Shown one piece after another: positions 5,851 to 63,400 of a DNA stretch of 64,000 bases (positions are counted from its first letter, which is position 1; every line of letters begins with the position of its first letter). The DNA is taken from positions 107,198,001 to 107,262,000 of the forward strand of contig JAGIQG010000009.1 of the NCBI GenBank assembly GCA_024679065.1, written 5' to 3'. The position numbers and the translations under genes were made by a program. The DNA comes from Sphyrna mokarran (taxonomy: Eukaryota). Under the pieces are notes generated by a model, which ran no database searches, was not told the origin of the DNA, and saw nothing but the letters and a program-made list of their open reading frames with translations.

Positions 5851-6985
5851 CAGACTACCCTATCCTATGGGATGTGACTGCCTCTGGAACAAAGCCTCCA
5901 GGACAACTACCTCCCCGACTCTGATGCATCATCGTACCTGTAGCTTGGACTCCAACTCACTGATACTGAATGGAGCTGCATTGTGGATCACAGTGGCACC
6001 CCCAAGATGGTAGATTGAACCAGAGCAGAACTTACTCAGTTAATGGTAGGGCATTGGGGAGAGTTACAGAAAAACAAGATCTAGACTTACAGCTTCATAG
6101 CTCCTTGAAAGTGGAGTCGCACATGGACAGAGTGATGACGAAGACATTCGGCATTCTTGGTTTTATTAGTCAGAACATTGGATATAGGAGTTGGGGCATC
6201 TTGTTGAAGTTGCACAAGACATTGATAAGGCTACACTTGGAATACTGTGTGCAATTCAAGTCACTCGATTATAGAAAGGATATTATTAAATTAGGAAGAG
6301 TTCAGAAAAGATTTACCAAATGCTACTGGGACTTGGTAGTTTGAGTTATAAGAAGAGGCTGGATGGAGAGGCTTTTTTTCTCTGGAGCATAGAAGGCTGA
6401 GGAGTGGTCTTATAGATCTTAATGAGGGGATAGACAAGGTAGATAGTCAATATCTTTTTTCAAAGGTAGGGCAATCAAAACGAGAGGGCATAGGTTTAAG
6501 GTGAGAGGGAACAGATATGAAAGTGTCCAGAGGGGCAATTTTTTCACACAGGGGGTGGTGAGTGTCTGGAACAAACTGCCAGAGGTGGATGTAAAGGTGG
6601 ATACAATTTTGTCTTTTAAAAAGCATTTAGACAGTTAAATGGCTAAGATGGGTATAGAGTGTTATGGGCCAAACACAGGCAATTGCGACTAGCTTAGGGG
6701 TTAAAAAAAGGAGCAGCATGGACGAGTTGGGCTGAAAGGCTGTTTCTATGCTGTAAACCTCAATGACATACTACAGCTGCAACACTGCAAATATGCTGTG
6801 TTCCTGTCTCTCTATCGCCATCTGGTGATATTCCTATCTTCTACATCCAGTTATTGCTCCCTATCACGATCTGGTGGTATCCCAGTTATTCCTCCCTATC
6901 TCCATCTGGTGGTATCCCTGATAAGCTCTCAGCTTATCCACTTCTTTGTCTCCATTGTTCCCTCATCCTGGGATCATTCCCTCAC

Positions 6986-9298
6986 CCAAGAGGCCAATAG
7001 CGAACACAATGAGACAACCAATGAAATGGAACAGCCGACAGAGAGATCCGTGGTGCAGCAATGGGAGAGGGAAGAGTTGAACTGGACTCCTCCGGAAGGC
7101 TGCCGCCCTCGACTCGGCATGCATGCCCAAGCCATCAGGAGGTGCATCAATGTCAGGCTCATCAGCCGCACTCACAAGTACATCACCCAAGCACAACGCG
7201 ATGCCATCTGCCTCTCAAGACCAACCGCAACATTGTCATCAAACCAGCTGACAAAGGAGGCGCCATCGTCATACTGAACAGAAACGAATTACTGTAAAGA
7301 AGTGTACCGACAACTAAACAATGAGGAACACTGTAGACCTGCAGATCTGACCAAAGAACACACCTGCCAACTCAACAGACAGATCAAGATCTTTGAACTG
7401 GACCTTCAGGGCACCCTCTGTGCTCTCATCCCATGTAATCCCCATTTTGGAGATGTCTACTGCCTCCCGAAGATATACAAGGCAAACACACCCGGCTGTC
7501 CCATCATATCGGGCAATGGGATTTCTCTGGCTATGCCAAGGGCATCCTGAAACCCATTGTACAAAGAACCCCCAGATTTTGTTGCGACACTACGGACTCC
7601 TACAGAAACTCAGCACCCATGGAGCAGTTGAACCAGGAGCACTCCTTATCACAATGGATTTCTCGGCACTCTACCCCAGCATCCCTCACAATGATGGCGT
7701 TGCTGCAATTGCCTCAGTACTCAATGCTGACAACTGCCAATCTCCAGGTGCAATTTTACAACTCATCCGCTTCACCCTGGATCACGACATCTTCACCTTC
7801 AACACACTGAAAAGATATGAGGACAAAATTTGCACTCAATATACCAAAATTTTCACGCACAGATTCAAACAAGACTTCTTCACCGCTCAGGACCTTCAAC
7901 TGACACTATGCACTAGATACATCGATGACATTTTCTTCCTTTGGACTCATGGTGAACAATCACTGAAACAACTGTATGATGACATCAACAAGTTCCACCC
8001 CACCATTAAACTCACCATGGACTATTCTCCGGAATTTTGGACGCATGCATCTCCATCAAGGACAATCACCTCAGCATTTCATTGTACCGCAAGCCCAAGG
8101 ATAATTCATGATGCTCCACTCCTCCAGCTTCCACCATAAACACGTTAAAGAAGCCATCGCATACGGACAAGCCCTCTGTATACACAGGATCTGCTCAGAT
8201 GAGGAGGATCGCAACAGACACCTCCAGACGCTGAAAGATGCCCTCATAAGAACAGGATATGGTTGTCAACTCATTGATCGACAGTTCCGACGCGCCACTG
8301 CGATAAACCGCACCGACCTCCTCAGAAGACAAACATGGGACACAGTGGACAGAGTACCCTTCATCATCCAGTACTTCCCTGGAGCTTCTCCTGAGCTTTA
8401 ACATGTCATTGATGAAGATGAACATCTTGCCAAGGTTATCCCCACACCTCCCGCTTCTTGCCTTCAAACAACCGAACAACCTCAAACTATCCAGCTTCAG
8501 GAGAACGGTGACCACAACACCACACAACCTTGCCACAGCACCTCCGCAAGATGTGCCAGATCATCAACATGGATGTCATCATCTCATGTGAGAATACCAT
8601 CCACCAGATACATGGTACATACTCCTGCAACTCTATCAATGTTGTCTACCTGATACGATGCAGGAAAGGATGTCCCGAAGAATGATACATTGGGGAGACT
8701 ATGCGGACTTTACAACAACGGATGAATGAATACCACTTGACAATCACCAGGCAGAATTGTTCTCTTCCTGTTGAGGATCATTTCAGCGGTCACAGGCATT
8801 CAGCCTCTGATCTTCAGGAAAGTGTTCTCCAAGGCAGCTTTGAAGACACACGATAGTGCAGATTCACTGAGCAGAGACCAATAGCCAAGTTTCGCACATG
8901 TGAGGACGGCCTCAACTGGAATCTTGGGTTCATGTCACACCATCTGCAATCCACAGAATGTGCCTGGGCTTGCGAAATCTCACGAACTGTCCTGGCTGGA
9001 GACAATGCACAATACACACAGAGAGCTTAACCTGTGTTTAACCTCTCTCCACTCACATTATCTGTACCCTTATGGCTTGATTACCTGTAAAGACTCGCAT
9101 TCCAATCATTATCTTGTAAATTGAGTTTGTGTCTTTATATGCCCTGTTTGTGAACGCAACTCCCACTCACCTAATGAAGGAGCAACGCTCTGAAAGCTTG
9201 TGGCTTGTGCTACCAAATAAACCTGTTGGACTTTAACTTGGCGTTGTGAGACTTCTTACTGTGCTTACCCCAGTCCAACGCCAGCATCTCCACATCAT
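6986..9298 (+). mobile_element. Penelope-like retroelement, 5'-truncated and frameshifted (RT, GIY-YIG, 3' pLTR)
   Basis: Motifs IVIKPADKGGAIVI, ITMDFSALYPSIPH, RYIDDIFFLW; GIY-YIG-like NVVYLIRC...YIGET near 8640-8700; hammerhead-like motif at 9168-9202. Confidence 0.9.
9168..9202 (+). ncRNA. Degraded minimal hammerhead ribozyme in the Penelope pLTR
   Basis: cac-CTAATGA-aggagcaacgctct-GAAA-gct-t-gtg; the CUGAUGA core is mutated to CUAAUGA. Confidence 0.6.
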
Positions 9299-9401
9299 CA
9301 TTGGCTTCATCCCAGGATCATTGCTTCATCCCGGGATCAATCCTTCATCCAGAAATTGTTCCCTCATCTCCGAGATCATTCCTTGATCCCCGGGATCATT
9401 C
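9297..9401 (+). repeat. About 19-20 bp minisatellite (TTCATCCCGGGATCATTCC), with a further unit at about 6958-6985
   Basis: Degenerate units on both sides of the Penelope element. Confidence 0.7.
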
Positions 9402-16700: not shown

Positions 16701-19700
16701 AACCCGGGTCCCTGGTGTTGTGAGACAGCAGTGCTAACCACTGTGCTGCCTGGGACAAAGAAAAGGGCCATTCGGCCCGTACAGTTCATGCCTGCTTTTA
16801 AGCTTCACTCAAAGAACAAAGAGCAAAACAGCACAGGAACAGAAGCATCAGCCCACCAAGTCTGCACCAATACATGGTTTCTTTATCTTCCACCTCATTA
16901 TTGCTGTTCCCTTTCTCCTCCCCTTTTCCCCCAATTCCTCCCTGCCAATTGCTTTGAATCTTTTACATTTCCTATGGACTGGGCATGCTAAACTGATCCC
17001 AGTGTCGGGGGACTAGCAGGATAAATATGTGAGGTTGGGGGGATAGAGCCTGTGGTCGGTGCAGACTCGATGGGCCAAATGGCCTCCTTTTGCACTGTAG
17101 GGATTCGACGATTCCATGAGACCCCCTCTCACTGTTCCAAACTCTAGTGAATATCATCCTAACCAACTTAAACTCTCCTCATATGGCAAACCTGCCTTAC
17201 CCAGGAATCAGCCTGGATGCTTCATCCCAATGTAGGGACAAATATATTGGTTAAAAAACATGAAAGGGGAAGAGTAGAGGTCCAGGGTATAGGAAATGAG
17301 CAGGAGGTTGAGTAGACAGCACCGCCAAATGGCCTTCCTATCTATGAATGCTGGAGGATACTGTGAGTTGTGCGTTGTGAAACCATCATTAAACAGCCCG
17401 GCTCCTGGTCTTAAGATTGAGGGCAGGTCATTGAAGCAGCAATCGACAAAGAAAGGGACGTGTGAATGTAATTCTCCCTGTCTTCTTGCAACTTCCTTTT
17501 TCTTGGTCAATAACTGAAACCATTGGAGTGTTTTCACCGCTCCCCCAATGACCTCTTGTGGGGAAGAACACAACCAGATGCCTTCAATCGAAGATGGTCA
17601 CCAAAGCAATCTGATAGGGAATTCGGAGGAAAGTTCCTAACCGAAGTGTGGTGAGGATGTGGAACTCATGGCCGCAAGGGGTGGTTGCCATGAATACATT
17701 GTGTGGTATAAGGGGAAGCTAGGCAAGCGAGTGAAGGAGAGAGGTTAAGATGGTAGATGTAGTTGAGTAAAGGTGGGAGGAGGCTCAAATTAAGCTGCAA
17801 ATTATACAGTAAATGGCAGAACCCTTGGGAGGATGCAGAGGGATCTGGGTGTACAAGTCCATAGACCACTTAAAGTGGCAACACAGGTGGATAAGGTGGT
17901 CAAGAAGACATACAGCATAGAATGACAGAATCCCTGCAGTACAGAAGTAGACCATTCAGCCCATTGAGCTTGTACTGAACACAATCCCACACAGGACCTA
18001 TTCCTGTAAGCCTGAACATTTACCTTGCTAATTCCCCTGACAATAGGGTCAATTTGGCATTGATAATCAACCTAGCCTGCACATCTTCAAACTGTGGGAA
18101 GAAACTGGAGCATCTGGAGGAAATTCATGCAAACACAGGGAGAAGGTGCAAACTCCACATAGACACTGACCTGAGGCTGGAATTGAACCTGGGTCCCTGG
18201 TACTATAAGGTAGCAGTGTTAACCACTGTGCCGCCATGACGCTTTCATTGGTTGCATAAAGGTTAGCAAGTTATCTTACAGCTGTATAAAACTTCAGTGA
18301 GGTCGCATTTGGAATATTATGTGTGGTTCTGATCACATTTGGAATATTACGTGCAGTTGGTCATTGTCACACTACCAGGAAGACGTGGATACTTTGGAGA
18401 AGATGCAAAGAAGGTTTACCAGGATGTTTCCTGGTCTGGAGGGTTTTAGGGATGAAGAGAGGTTGCATAAACTTGGACTGTTTGCACTGGAAATAGTGAG
18501 ACTGAGGAACATAGATAGGCTGGATAATCAGATTCTTTATCCCAAGGTGAAGGATTGACACAAGAGTGCACAGTTCAAGATGAGATGGGAAATTTAGTGG
18601 AGACGTGCGGAGAAAGTTTTTATTCAGAGAGTGGTGGGTGCCTGGAATGCATTGCCAGTGGAGATGGGGGAAGAAAGCACATTAGCAACATTCAAAGTGT
18701 GTCTTAACAGACACATGGATGGGAGGTGAAGAAAGGGATAGAAACTGCGTATTGGTGCAACCTTGCTGTTTTGCTCCTTGTTCTTTGTTTTTTAAGTGAA
18801 GCCTAAAAGCAGGCTTGGACTCTATGGGCCGAATGGCTTGTTTCTTTGTCATAGATCCCAGGTAAGAGGTCACAGGCTTATCAATACCCAATGCCCCAGT
18901 AACAACCCTAAGTCATATTGCTACCCAAATGCCTCAATATCTTGACGATCTGCATCTTTGTTTCAAGACCCACATTTGACCACTTCTTAACTGAATGAAA
19001 GTTGGCCACAATTTACTTGGACAATCTAATCGCCAGTATCTACACTGCAGGCTAGAGATAAAATAAATAATTCCCTGCACAGTTCCAACAAATACTCCCA
19101 GGACAGGGTTAGATACAGAGTAAAGATTCCTATTTACTGTCACAGCAAACACCCCCAGGATAGGTATAGCATGGAGTTAGATACAGAGTAAAGCTCCCTC
19201 TACACTGTCCTCATCAAACACTCCCAGGACAGGTAAGCATGGGATTAGATACAGAGTAAAGCTCCCTCTACACTGTCCCCATCAAACATTCCCAGGACAG
19301 GTACAGCACGGGGTTAGATACAGAGTAAAGCTCCCTCTACACTGTCCTCATCAAACACTCCCAGGACAGGTACAGCACGGGGTTAGATACAGGGTAAAGC
19401 TCCCTCTACACTGTCCCCATCAAACACTCCCAGGACAGGTACAGCACGGGGTTAAATACTGAGTAAAGCTCCCTCTGCGCTGTCCCCATCAAACATTCCC
19501 AGACAGTACAGCATGGGGTTAGATACAGAGTAAAGATTCTATTCCACTGTCTTGTTGAGATTACTTCTTTCACTATTAGGTTCTATTGTTGAATATTTCA
19601 GGTGGTAAAGCCTACGGAATCCTTAAAGCAAAACAGGATGACCTCCTGGAAGCAATCAATAAGGTATGGAGAAAAATAGAGATAAAACATTAATTTTCTT

Positions 19701-22700
19701 AAGTGTGCGCTCATTGAGGTAAGGATTGCAAGCGTGGTAAACGAAAATGTCTCTATTCCAGGCACCAAGTATTAGCTTGAAGCATCACCAAGACTATTTC
19801 AAACACTTATTGAACATATACAGCATGGGTTAGGTACCAAGTAAAGTACCTCTACACTCTCCCCATCAAACAGTCCCAGGACAGGTACAGTACATGGTGA
19901 GATACAGCGTAAAGCTCCCTCTACACTGTCCCCCATCAAACAGTCCCAGGACAGGTACAGCACGGGGTTAGATACAGAGTAAAGCTACCCCTGCACTGTC
20001 CCCATCAAACATTCCCAGGATAAGACGCAGCATGGGATTAGATACATACTAAAGCTACCTCAGCACTGTCCCTATCAAACACTCCCAAGACAGGTACAGC
20101 ACGGGGTCAGATACAGAGTAAAGGTCCCTCTACATTGTCCCCATCAACCACTCCCAGGATGGGTACAGCACGGGGTTGGATAGAGAGTAAAGATCCCTCT
20201 ATATTCTCCCCATCAATCAATCCCAGGATGGGTACAACATGGGGTTATGTACAAAGGAAAGCTCCCTCTACACTGTCCCATCAAATACTCCAGGACGTAC
20301 AGTATGGGGTTAGATACAGAGTAAAGTTCCCTCTACACTGCCCCCCATGAAAGATTCCCAGGACAGGTACAGCCCGGGGTTAGATACAGAGTAAAGCTCA
20401 CTCTATACTGTCCCCATCAAACACTCCCAGGACAGGTACAGAACAGGGTTAGATACAGAGTAAAGCTCCCTCTGTACTGTCCCCATCAAACACTCCCAGG
20501 ACAGGTACAGAACAGGGTTAGATGCAGAGTAAAGCTCCTGTTACATCTGTGAAAGTTGTTGGGTGAAGTCCCACTCCTGATAGATGGGGGCTGAATTGTA
20601 CCCTGGGATGAAAGTCACTTATTTACTCAGTGGGCTGTGGAAGATCAGCCATGGAGTCTGTTTAAAGCTGAGAATGATGTAAAGATGCCGGTGTTGGATT
20701 GGAGTGGTAAGAACTCAGTAAGAATTTAGCAACACCAATTATTAATCCAACCGATTTATTTGATAGTAAAATTTTACTATCAAATAAATCGGTTGGATTA
20801 ATAATTGGTGTTGCTAAATTCTTACTGAGTTCTTAAAGCTGAGAATGACAGATTTCTAAATACCAATGAGAGAGGAGGATAGTGATGGGAAATTATAGTA
20901 TTAAATGGAAAAAAACAGGCTCAGAGGCCTGAATAACCTCCTTGTGTTCTGACATTCCTACGTTCCACTTGGTTGCCTTGCCCTGAGGCCATTTGATAGC
21001 TGTTGGTTTGTTGGAATGATCATCACTGTCATGCCAACACTTATTGCTCATCCGTAGCTGTCTTCGAACTGAGTAGTTTGCATCGGCCATTTCAGAGGGC
21101 AGTTGTGGAGTCAACCACATTGCTGTGGCTCTGGAGTCACACGTAGGCCAGACCAGGTAAGGAGGGCAGATTTCCTTCCCTAAAAGGGATATTAGTGAAC
21201 CAAATGGGTTTTTGCGACAATGGTTTCATGGTCATCAGTAGTTTCTTAATTCCAGATACTTTTGAAGTCAAATTGTACCATCTGCCGTGGCGGGATTCGA
21301 ACCCGGATCCCCAGAACATTAACTAAATTTCTGGATTAATAGTCTAAGGATAACACCACCAGGTTATCAACTCCTGCTTAAGCTGAGGGAGCTGCTCATT
21401 GGCCCCTTGAATCACCAGTGTCTATCCGATGAGATTAACACCACACCCCCCATCATCCAGCTTATCCTGACTCCAGATGCTGGAATCATCCTCTGCCGAA
21501 GGGTCATCTCGAATTGGCTCCATTCTCTCTCCACGAGTGTTGTCAGACCCACTGACATTTTCTAGCATTTTTCTGTTTTTGTTTCGGTAAGGAAGCCCCT
21601 GGGACAGCCTGTTCTTATCTTAAATCCCCATCTCTGCACGGTGGAATAGTGATCAGCTGTGCTTCATCACAGCTCCAGGGACATGAGTTCGATTCCCAGC
21701 TTGGGTCACTGTGTGAAGTCTGCATGTTCTCCCCATGTCTGCGTGGGTTTCCTTTGTGTGCTCTTGTTCCTGCCTACAGTCCGAAAGACGTGCTGGTTAG
21801 GTTGCATTGGCCGTGCTAAATTCTCCCTCAGAGTATCCAAACAGTGTGGCAATTAATGGGGATTTAATGTAGGTAAATCTAACATTAACATGGCAATGAA
21901 GTTACTGTGAAATTTACCTAGTTGCCACATTCTGGCACCTGTTCGGGTCAATGCACCCTAACCAGCACATCTTTCGGACTGTGGGAGGAAACCAGAGCAC
22001 CCGGAGGAAACCCATGCAGACACTGGGAGAACACGCAGAAGATCGTGAGGTGATTCATTCAAGCATACAAAATTCTTACAAAGTTCAGCAGGATGTTCCC
22101 CCTTGATGTTTCCTCTGGGGATGTGCAGAGGTGGTGTGTGGGAAGCTGTGTGGGGGAGGGGTGGCTGGGAACCAGGCTGGAATTTTACCACTACGGGCGG
22201 GGGTGGCTCACCGAACGGAATTCTCTGTTGGCATCCGGTGGGATTTTACGAGCCTCGCCCATGTCAAATCATAAAATATTGGCTGCAGTCTCAGAATAAG
22301 AGGTAAGACCGAGATGGGGAGGAGCTTTTTCACACAGAGGGATGGTGAATCTTTGCAATTCCTTGACCAGTGTTCAGTCAGTGAATGTGTTCAACGCAGA
22401 GCTTGGTAGATTTCTAAATATCAAGGGGTATAGAACAAAGATCAAAGAACAATACAGGAATAGGCCTTCGGCCTACCAATATATGGTTTCTATCCCTCTT
22501 TTTACCTCCACTCATATCTCCATCAAGATAAATCCTGAATGTTGCTTTCTTCCACCATCTCCTCTGGCAACGCATTCCTGGCACTCACCACTCTCTGTGT
22601 GAAAAACTTCTGTATTTCTCTCCTGAACTTTCCCCTTTTAACCTTCAACCTGTACCCTCTTGTAACTAAAACTTCCACTCTTGGAAAAAGCCTCGGACCA

Positions 22701-60424: not shown

Positions 60425-63400
60425 GTGTGTGTGTGTGTGTGTGTTTGGGGAAAGGTGGGGAAGGGGTGCTACTTTATCTTCTTTAGTGGTGTTCTAAACT
60501 ACCCACCCCATCCCCATACTGCCGGATTCTCCAACCTCGCCCGCAGCAGGAATTCTCCAGTTCCGCTGCAGTGAACGGTTGATGCACTAAATTTTCCTTC
60601 TTGCGGACGGGGCTTGAATCCCTCCGGCTGTGTTGGAGGGCTCGCAATGAGCCCGGGAAATTTTATTTTGGCTGAGGGGGGTGTGTCGGAGCTGATTGAT
60701 TAGCTGCCCTTGTGTGATGGTGGGAGACTCGCACTACTGCATGGGGTTAATATTGAGAGGGGCGACGGCTGATGTGACACTGTCCACCCCCTTTTTCGCT
60801 TCTCCTCTGCCTGCCCAATAATATTTGGAAGGTATACAAGGCATGTCCAGTTCTGTTCAGGAACCTTCTCCACCCCCACTTCCCCTATAGCCCAGTAACG
60901 TTTTGAAAACTAGCGGTCCACACAATAGGGAACGAACACGCGTGCAAATAGTAGAAAGTAAGACCTTCACTTTAGTTCAATTCCTTTCGGAGGAGAAGTT
61001 CAAGTAAAAGGAATCGAAAGGGGGAAAATAACTCAAATTGTGATCAAGTTAACTCATGTATCAAGGCGGCAAGGAAGAACAACGAGTGATGACTAACTGA
61101 AGACTTTATTCCCGACAGGAGTTCACTCAGATAAGCCAAAAATACAGCAGACACCTCGGTCAGTGAATCTGACTGAAGGCCGTTCCGTTACTATGAATTG
61201 CACCATCAATATCGCGGGGGGTAAAGCTTACAAATGGCTGAAAAATGATATTGAAGTACAGCGGGTTATTTCGACGTACGCGAAAAGAGTAACCGAAAAC
61301 CAGCGAACTTTCAATGATCCTAACATATTATGGACAAGCCTAGAGATTAGAAATGTCGCAGAATGCGATTCGGCAACGTACTATTGCCAAGTGGACAACG
61401 TAGGCCAAATAACAAAGGGTGAAGGCACCACCCTAACCGTAACCCGTAAGCACATTGTGTTAATTGTGTGTGTGTGTGTGTGTGTAGCTTTATGTACTTA
61501 CGAAAACTTCCCTCTATAAATGTGCGCATGTGAGCGTCTGTGCGAGGGTGAGTGTGGGTATATCTGTAGTTTTTTTTACTATTCATTCGTGGGACTTGGG
61601 CGTCGCTGGTTCGCAAGCATTTATTGCCCATCCCTAGTTGCCCTTGGAGGGCAGTTAAGAATCAATCACATTGTTGTGGCTCTGGAATGTTGGCCAGACC
61701 AAGTAAGGATGGCAGATTTCCTTCCCTGGAGGATATTGGTATGTATGTGGGTCTGTCTCAGTGAGAAGGCACACGTGCTTATGAAGCTAAAGCCTTGTGT
61801 GATTTCAGGAAGAAGTTTGACATAGCTCTTTGGGGCTAAAGGGATCAAGGGATATTGGGGGAATCAGGATATTGAATTTGATGATCAGCCGTGAACAAAA
61901 GGAGTGGCGGGGCAGGCTCAAAGGGCCGAATGGCCTACTCCTGTTTCTAGTTTCTATGTTTCTATGTATTTGGTCTTAATTTGTGAGCGTTCAAATGTGA
62001 TTGCCTTGTGGTTATACATGTCTGTGTAAGAATATACGTGTGTGACACACACACATACATTCTCAAACAGACAATCCCACATAAATATATGTGTCTGAAC
62101 CTGTGAGAGTTTATCTGTAACTCTGTATCACAGTGTGAGTATGTGTGCGTGACTGTATCTCTGTAAGAGTGTGTATCTGTGTGCGTTTGCATTGGAGTGT
62201 CTATATAGAAACAGAAAATGGAAGCAGCAGTAAGCCATTCGGCCCGTCGAGCCTCCTCCACCATTCATTTTGATTATGGCTGATCATCAAATTCAATGTC
62301 ACGATTGCTCCCTTCCCCATATCCCGTTAGCCCCTAGAACTATATCTAATTTCTTCTTGAAATCAGGCAATGTTTTAGCCTCTGCTTTTTTCTGTGGTAG
62401 TAAACTACACACATTCACTACTCTCTGGGTGAAGAAATATGTCCTCACCTCAGTCCCAAGACGTTTACCCTCTTATCCTCAAATTATGACCCTTACTATT
62501 TTTATTGTTCATTCATGGGACACAGACGTCACTGGCCGTCCGGCATTTCTTTATTCCCCATCCCGACTTGTCCTTGAAACTATTTGCTCGGCCATTTCAG
62601 AGGGCAGTTGGGGGTCAACAACATTGCTGTGGCTCTGGAGTCACATGTAGGCCAGACCAAGAAAGGACGGCAGATATCCTTTCCTAAATGACATTAATGA
62701 ACCAGATGTGTTTTTCCAACAATTGAGAATGGTTTCAAGTCATTCTGGGCTCCCCCACCACCAGGAACATTCTGAATTTACACTGTCTTATCCTGTTAGA
62801 ATTTTATATGTTTCTATGAGATCCCCTCTCAATCTTTTGAACTCCAATGAGTATAATCCTAACCAAATTAGTCTCTTCTCATATGACAGACCTGCCTTCC
62901 CAGGAATCAACCTTTGCTGCACTTCTTTGAGGACCTCTTTTCCAGATAAGGAGATCAAAACTGCACATAATACTTCAGGTCTGGCCTCACAAGCAACCTA
63001 TACAAAGCTTATGAGAGCAAGTGCGTATGTCTGCATGAGAATGTGTGTGTATGTGTGCCTGTATGGGACTGTTTGTACGTATGTCTGTGTCAATCGGATA
63101 TGTATATATATCTCTGGGACTATGCGTATGCCTCTTGGTGATAATATGTTTGCCTCACTACCTCAGAGTGTGACAGCCAAAATATGTCAGTAGATACGTG
63201 TCTATGAGTGTGCACGCCTGCCTGTCACTGTTTGTGTGTGTCTGTGAATGTTGCAGGCAATGTGCATGCATGCACCAAGGGGGACTGTTGCTGAGACCGC
63301 CATCACTTAATGTGAAACAACCCTATTTAATATTAACGGAAAAAAATCACTATTCTTTTGTTGAGGTGCCAATGCTTGTCTAACTTATCTTCCCACTATC

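Follow-up and report, generated by a model that had tools for sequence, protein, structure and literature searches.

In Sphyrna mokarran, an AIF1-family gene carries a perfect intronic palindrome that is real but ordinary and is likely a very short, recent insertion of Penelope type. We are highly confident that it is an insertion from a high-copy subfamily of Penelope-like elements (PLEs), heavily truncated at the 5' end, which probably arose recently, as a palindrome, in a single retrotransposition event. Presumably, the two arms do not differ because the same young subfamily served as the source of each and neither has mutated since. Taken alone, the locus matters little, as a young retroelement has left thousands of such arms in the genome. 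The family to which it belongs provides a large natural data set on the formation of inverted PLE ends, a step that is left open in the accessible parts of PMC3846280, PMC8557442, PMC11167929, and PMC4209133.

Direct comparison confirmed the palindrome claimed in the earlier note, since positions 20708-20771 and 20772-20835 are exact reverse complements of 64 bp each with a loop of 0 nt. In the window, i.e., the whole 64-kb stretch of DNA that was analysed, the next-best perfect palindrome has a 14-bp arm, and 20708-20835 is by far the longest. Both copies of the reported 16-bp direct repeat, TTAAAGCTGAGAATGA, were also found in place on the plus strand (20662-20677 and 20833-20848), and the window contains no third copy. 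The left copy of this target-site duplication (TSD) is separated from the left arm by 30 unpaired nucleotides (20678-20707, minus strand), which were missing from the earlier description and represent a one-sided Penelope tail; the sense strand of the element is the minus strand here. The left arm (20708-20771, minus strand) consists of 64 bp of the pLTR end of the putatively young PLE subfamily; the right arm (20772-20835, plus strand) repeats these 64 bp in inverted orientation and without a tail, the head-to-head junction being AAAA/TTTT. Three nucleotides (TTA) are common to the end of the right arm and the right TSD copy. In sister copies, the last flanking letters before the tail are A, GA, TGA, or ATGA, and the final 1-4 nt (ATGA) of the left TSD copy also fit the start of the tail in these copies; thus, 1-4 nt of the 16 nt as written at 20662-20677 are microhomology.

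The genome of the shark was searched with the tail plus the left arm (20678-20771, 94 bp), which yielded 527 candidates, 40 of which were scored. Eighteen of these 40 matches, the query locus included, were 100% identical over 94 bp and the remainder 99-100%, so that 17 other loci among those scored have 0 differences from the tail plus arm. Exact matches in the genome number 4,601 (2,314 + 2,287) for a 34-mer covering the diagnostic positions and 4,229 for a 51-mer of the arm, compared with 0 for the reversed control in each case. It had been suggested that many near-identical genomic copies would indicate a simple young insertion, and a search with the arm did reveal a matching subfamily with thousands of exact copies. 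The 17 loci at 100% and the 4,601 exact 34-mers likewise support the second of the two origins considered in the earlier note, namely that the inverted insertion is recent and comes from a distinct subfamily. The description of the feature as diverged from its family was correct only with respect to the window itself: tail and arm share 74% identity with the window copy at 9210-9298, but the same 94 bp recur unchanged at 17 other scored loci. This verdict arose because the comparison was made with an older subfamily and not with the young source subfamily, whose youth we infer from sequence identity. The older subfamily is represented in the window by a decayed and frameshifted long Penelope-like copy on the plus strand (approximately 6700-9300), the pLTR and tail of which end at approximately 9298.

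Six longer sister regions were scanned for open reading frames (ORFs). The three longest element ORFs comprise 755, 477, and 486 aa between stops, and in the Pfam domain search all three showed an RVT_1 match followed by a GIY-YIG match. RVT_1 exceeded the Pfam cut-off in two of the three and stayed below it in one, while the GIY-YIG matches (E 2-4e-4, 21.2-22.0 bits) lie just below the cut-off of 22.6. As judged from sequence identity, copy number, and this domain order, the source is a young, abundant, canonical endonuclease-bearing PLE. The sister locus L031, which is identical to the tail plus arm at 94/94 positions, carries this sequence downstream of its ORF; relative to L031, the left arm in the window is antisense to the element ORF and belongs to its 3' side. 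The palindromic stump itself has no ORF.

The palindromic architecture is repeated throughout the family. The 94-bp search provided 29 other loci, which correspond to 28 independent sisters because L010 and L011 share their flanks and count as one duplicated insertion. Eighteen of the 28 have an inverted, tail-less arm in head-to-head orientation, and 10 have no inverted arm within the DNA examined. Most of the inverted sisters are bordered by TSDs of 11-16 bp, compared with 16 bp at the palindrome locus. Among 100 listed matches of the 34-mer, 26 adjacent pairs within 5 kb are arranged head to head, 18 of them spaced at most 300 bp apart, and the opposite arrangement occurs 0 times. A looser pattern, which also includes related subfamilies, identified 487 loci that fold back within 24 nt at the same motif. 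Perfect palindromes even longer than the one studied here are found in sisters, both with a loop of 0 nt (103 and 77 bp per arm) and with a loop of 1-2 nt (115, 113, 113, 93, 92, and 91 bp per arm). Where a sister has the full tail, its inverted arm starts at reference position 30-59. The exact 36-bp centre of the palindrome is present at three loci in the genome, the window locus included. The two others share the zero-loop centre but have their own flanks, their own TSDs, and a different subfamily variant on both arms; the same junction thus, most simply, seems to have arisen more than once. Two side observations concern individual sisters. L010 and L011 are one insertion with an identical upstream flank that is present twice 20 kb apart, and this reflects either a local segmental duplication or an assembly duplicate. 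Two pairs of independent insertions, L020 and L029 (approximately 235/388 on the reference) and L018 and L076 (131/136), are inverted at almost the same junction, but within each pair the tail sits on a different arm, a recurrence that would be due either to microhomology hot spots or to a pre-inverted master copied both ways.

The layout of PLE insertions, with an inverted pLTR, a one-sided 30-40-nt tail, and a target duplication, is described in the accessible parts of PMC3846280 and PMC8557442, and the palindrome locus conforms to it in having an inverted 5'-truncated pLTR, a one-sided tail of this length class, and a TSD. The available sections of PMC3846280 report for Pen2a/Pen2 of Adineta vaga a head-to-head inverted pLTR, a one-sided tail of approximately 30 nt, a TSD, and a palindrome at the junction. 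In contrast to these elements, the shark stump is devoid of an ORF or internal sequence, its arms measure only 64 bp, and its TSD has 16 bp as written instead of 8-10 bp. The strong 5' truncation, the adjacent inverted 5'-truncated copy, and the 30-40-bp tail at one end match the general PLE architecture in PMC8557442; the stump is located at the extreme short end of the size range, and the accessible part of that paper does not treat stumps as a class. Short head-to-head remnants resembling most of the sisters are also known from truncated PLEs in which two minimal hammerheads lie on opposite strands at a distance of 100-700 bp (PMC4209133, in the portion available), but the shark stump halts before the hammerhead core and has none.

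The candidate hammerhead motif of the pLTR, with a CUGAUGA-stem-GAAA core, was recognised by eye at L031:7495-7570. The parent pLTR had no match in Rfam, and the fold of the L031 monomer does not surpass that of shuffled sequences (z 0.16), in keeping with the dimer dependence of minimal motifs described in the accessible text of PMC4209133. The centre of the palindrome, where the left arm stops, lies 4 nt before the minimal-hammerhead cut site predicted by eye. Ribozyme cleavage was therefore considered as a possible determinant of the truncation point. Exact-match counts decrease from 9,971 to 9,718 across this predicted site (2.5%; 0.85% per nt) and from 4,601 to 4,229 over 17 upstream nucleotides (0.49% per nt), with the two anchors covering different subfamily mixes; the drop at the site is at most a small excess and not a sharp wall. 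Reference positions 120-150, immediately 5' of the hammerhead core and thus beyond the ribozyme, are where most of the short inverted sisters (L005-L085) stop, and this interval may mark the 5' end of the RNA of the element.

For head-to-head PLE insertions in general, we give roughly even credence to an origin by two-strand priming, in which each nicked strand primes its own cDNA, one per internal start site and sometimes from different RNAs. The endonuclease of the element would make a staggered cut in the target, and both free 3' ends would prime reverse transcription. Initiation at the distal start site would result in a cDNA with a tail and initiation at the proximal site in a tail-less cDNA. 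The two cDNAs would end early and join head to head via a short self-complementary end, here likely AT, and gap filling would then produce the target duplication. The 2-nt AT overlap would fit the centre if the parent variant continues with a T after the four A, which is an assumption of this scheme. In vitro work on the Poseidon element PAc of Anolis offers a biochemical parallel: in the available sections of PMC11167929, the protein cleaves and extends both target strands, the tail corresponds to the stretch between two internal initiation sites of reverse transcription, the target is AT-rich, and the pLTR has a hammerhead, all of which is shared with our reading of the shark element, whose own hammerhead is a candidate. 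Inverted insertions are not addressed in these sections, where the sole use of "inverted" refers to an oligonucleotide block. A literature search, which covered mostly freely available papers, found no paper devoted to two-strand priming of inverted PLE ends. If two-strand priming is true, the thousands of young copies in this genome would preserve traces of a step in the PLE cycle that is not yet understood and could serve to decide how it proceeds, and the palindrome locus would be one minimal example of it that is not special in itself.

The same type of insertion might also be formed by fold-back, i.e., by self-priming of the first cDNA (or of an antisense template) on a short palindromic end and copying towards the tail before the jump into the target, which we regard as the less probable route, although it deserves serious consideration. 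Self-priming is proposed for head-to-head palindromes in the accessible part of PMC3846280, and the junctions of the sisters are centred on self-complementary words, e.g., AGCT, GTGCAC, and AAATTT. The two routes were compared on 40 resolved inverted insertions, after L074, L075, and L081 had been dropped as unresolved; this set is non-random, as its members were selected by arm match and 20 regions were chosen because they contained inverted pairs. In 25 of the 40, the junction is symmetric to within 14 nt, and in a slightly different set of 39 insertions the arms are concordant at 113 of 139 shared variant sites (81%), compared with 47% for random pairs. Symmetry and concordance show that both arms usually stem from one template or one master; they fit the copying of one arm from the other, and fold-back may have generated many of these insertions, that at the palindrome locus included. 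However, a copy cannot exceed its tailed-cDNA template, but six of the 40 insertions have a tail-less arm that outreaches the tailed one by 15 nt or more (17, 27, 45, 56, 66, and 154 nt); nine show the reverse. Deletion at the tip of a hairpin after insertion is a possible alternative source of such length asymmetry. Moreover, the two arms differ at shared variants in 8 of the 39 insertions, some of these sites being a matter of gap placement. Two-strand priming is therefore, on balance, our preferred mechanism, since longer tail-less arms and discordant haplotypes are not explained by simple copying of the tailed cDNA. The palindrome locus is perfectly symmetric and thus compatible with both routes.

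The remaining explanations all carry a very low probability. One of them builds on homogenisation, the first origin considered in the earlier note: the insertion would be old, and hairpin- or cruciform-templated repair would preserve the identity of its arms, perhaps with selection for double-stranded RNA (dsRNA) in the AIF1 pre-mRNA. Wherever they deviate from the two old window copies, the arms indeed agree with each other, and the predicted RNA folds into a 62-bp stem, but the positions in question simply show the sequence of a subfamily whose thousands of exact copies are in many cases unpaired. All differences from the old window copies within 20678-20771 recur in such unpaired copies, including L031 with 94/94 identical positions, so there are no private shared mutations, and arm-to-arm homogenisation is not needed and was rejected. 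It also does not explain why the partnerless 30-nt tail is as pristine as the arms, with 100% identity to the family, and the 16-bp TSD is still perfect. Hence, given the family match and the repeated palindromic architecture, the identity of the arms more plausibly reflects youth than homogenisation, and neither repair-driven homogenisation nor a dedicated dsRNA in an immune gene receives any support. A preformed, MITE-like palindromic mini-element that is copied as a unit is scarcely more credible. Three loci have the same 36-bp centre and some junctions recur with swapped arms (L020/L029 and L018/L076, see above), but three centres stand against 4,229 exact arms, the other two loci differ in subfamily variant and outer ends, and the centres vary widely among 50 listed of the 487 tight fold-backs; a palindromic master was therefore rejected for this centre. 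We consider an assembly artefact in the form of a fold-back chimera as improbable as homogenisation. In none of four runs does a contig span the palindrome. A contig of run X1, which may be the assembly's own sample, matches 20809-21000 with 0 differences and reaches 27 letters into the arm side, below the 31-letter threshold for bridging; the left flank was without cover in X1 at 97%, and the coverage hole is uninformative. Unlike a chimeric read, the locus has a perfect TSD, a one-sided tail, and family-typical boundaries, and the genome has many further examples of this layout that are imperfect and carry mutations. An A>G difference at 20703 was also considered as RNA editing and rejected, as the reads of the DNA runs come from other family copies with a variant at reference position 26.

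The insertion is located in a 9.2-kb intron of the AIF1-family gene, approximately 1 kb from the upstream coding exon (19602-19663, plus strand) and after the second recognisable position in the protein. The downstream coding exon (28878-28944, plus strand; PF21008, E 0.00083) is followed by further AIF1-family exons on the plus strand at approximately 30224-30265 and from 31081. The assignment to intron 2 of AIF1 thus holds with respect to the position between these two exons, and the intron number fits if an ATG micro-exon is exon 1; a search for this micro-exon within the window did not locate it. The gene name is less certain, with nearly tied scores for AIF1 and AIF1L (70.4 versus 70.1 bits). 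An immunoglobulin V-set exon was observed at 61097-61519 of the window (PF07686, E 1.3e-11). In the MHC class III region, AIF1 lies next to NCR3/NKp30, and this exon would thus favour AIF1 over AIF1L.

The pre-mRNA fold prediction yielded a stem of 62 bp closed by a loop of 4 nt (-104.9 kcal/mol, z -18), so that the postulated 64-bp dsRNA is plausible in nearly this form if the intron is transcribed. Among the sequencing runs listed as containing the locus there was no RNA run, which has no bearing on its expression. A special role has no support: with 487 loci that have a tight fold-back at the same motif, the RNA stem is generic, and the hairpin is not set apart from hundreds of others in the genome. 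These hundreds of long perfect hairpins would, where they are intronic, provide a putative dsRNA background for editing and small-RNA pathways.

The boundary between tail and arm creates a sequence resembling the splice-donor consensus, G/GTAAGA, at 20706/20707 on the sense strand of the gene. Together with a plausible acceptor at 20630, this donor might delimit a predicted frame-shifting cryptic exon of 76 nt (window region 20631-20712). A tandem repeat array with a period of approximately 69-70 bp and 11 copies of a 46-nt core occupies 19500-20550; it ends approximately 110 bp before the insertion and is interrupted by the AIF1-family exon at 19602-19663. At 21758-22000 lies an inverted repeat, apparently a pair of SINE type, whose 55-nt arms match imperfectly (85%) across a spacer of 133 nt.
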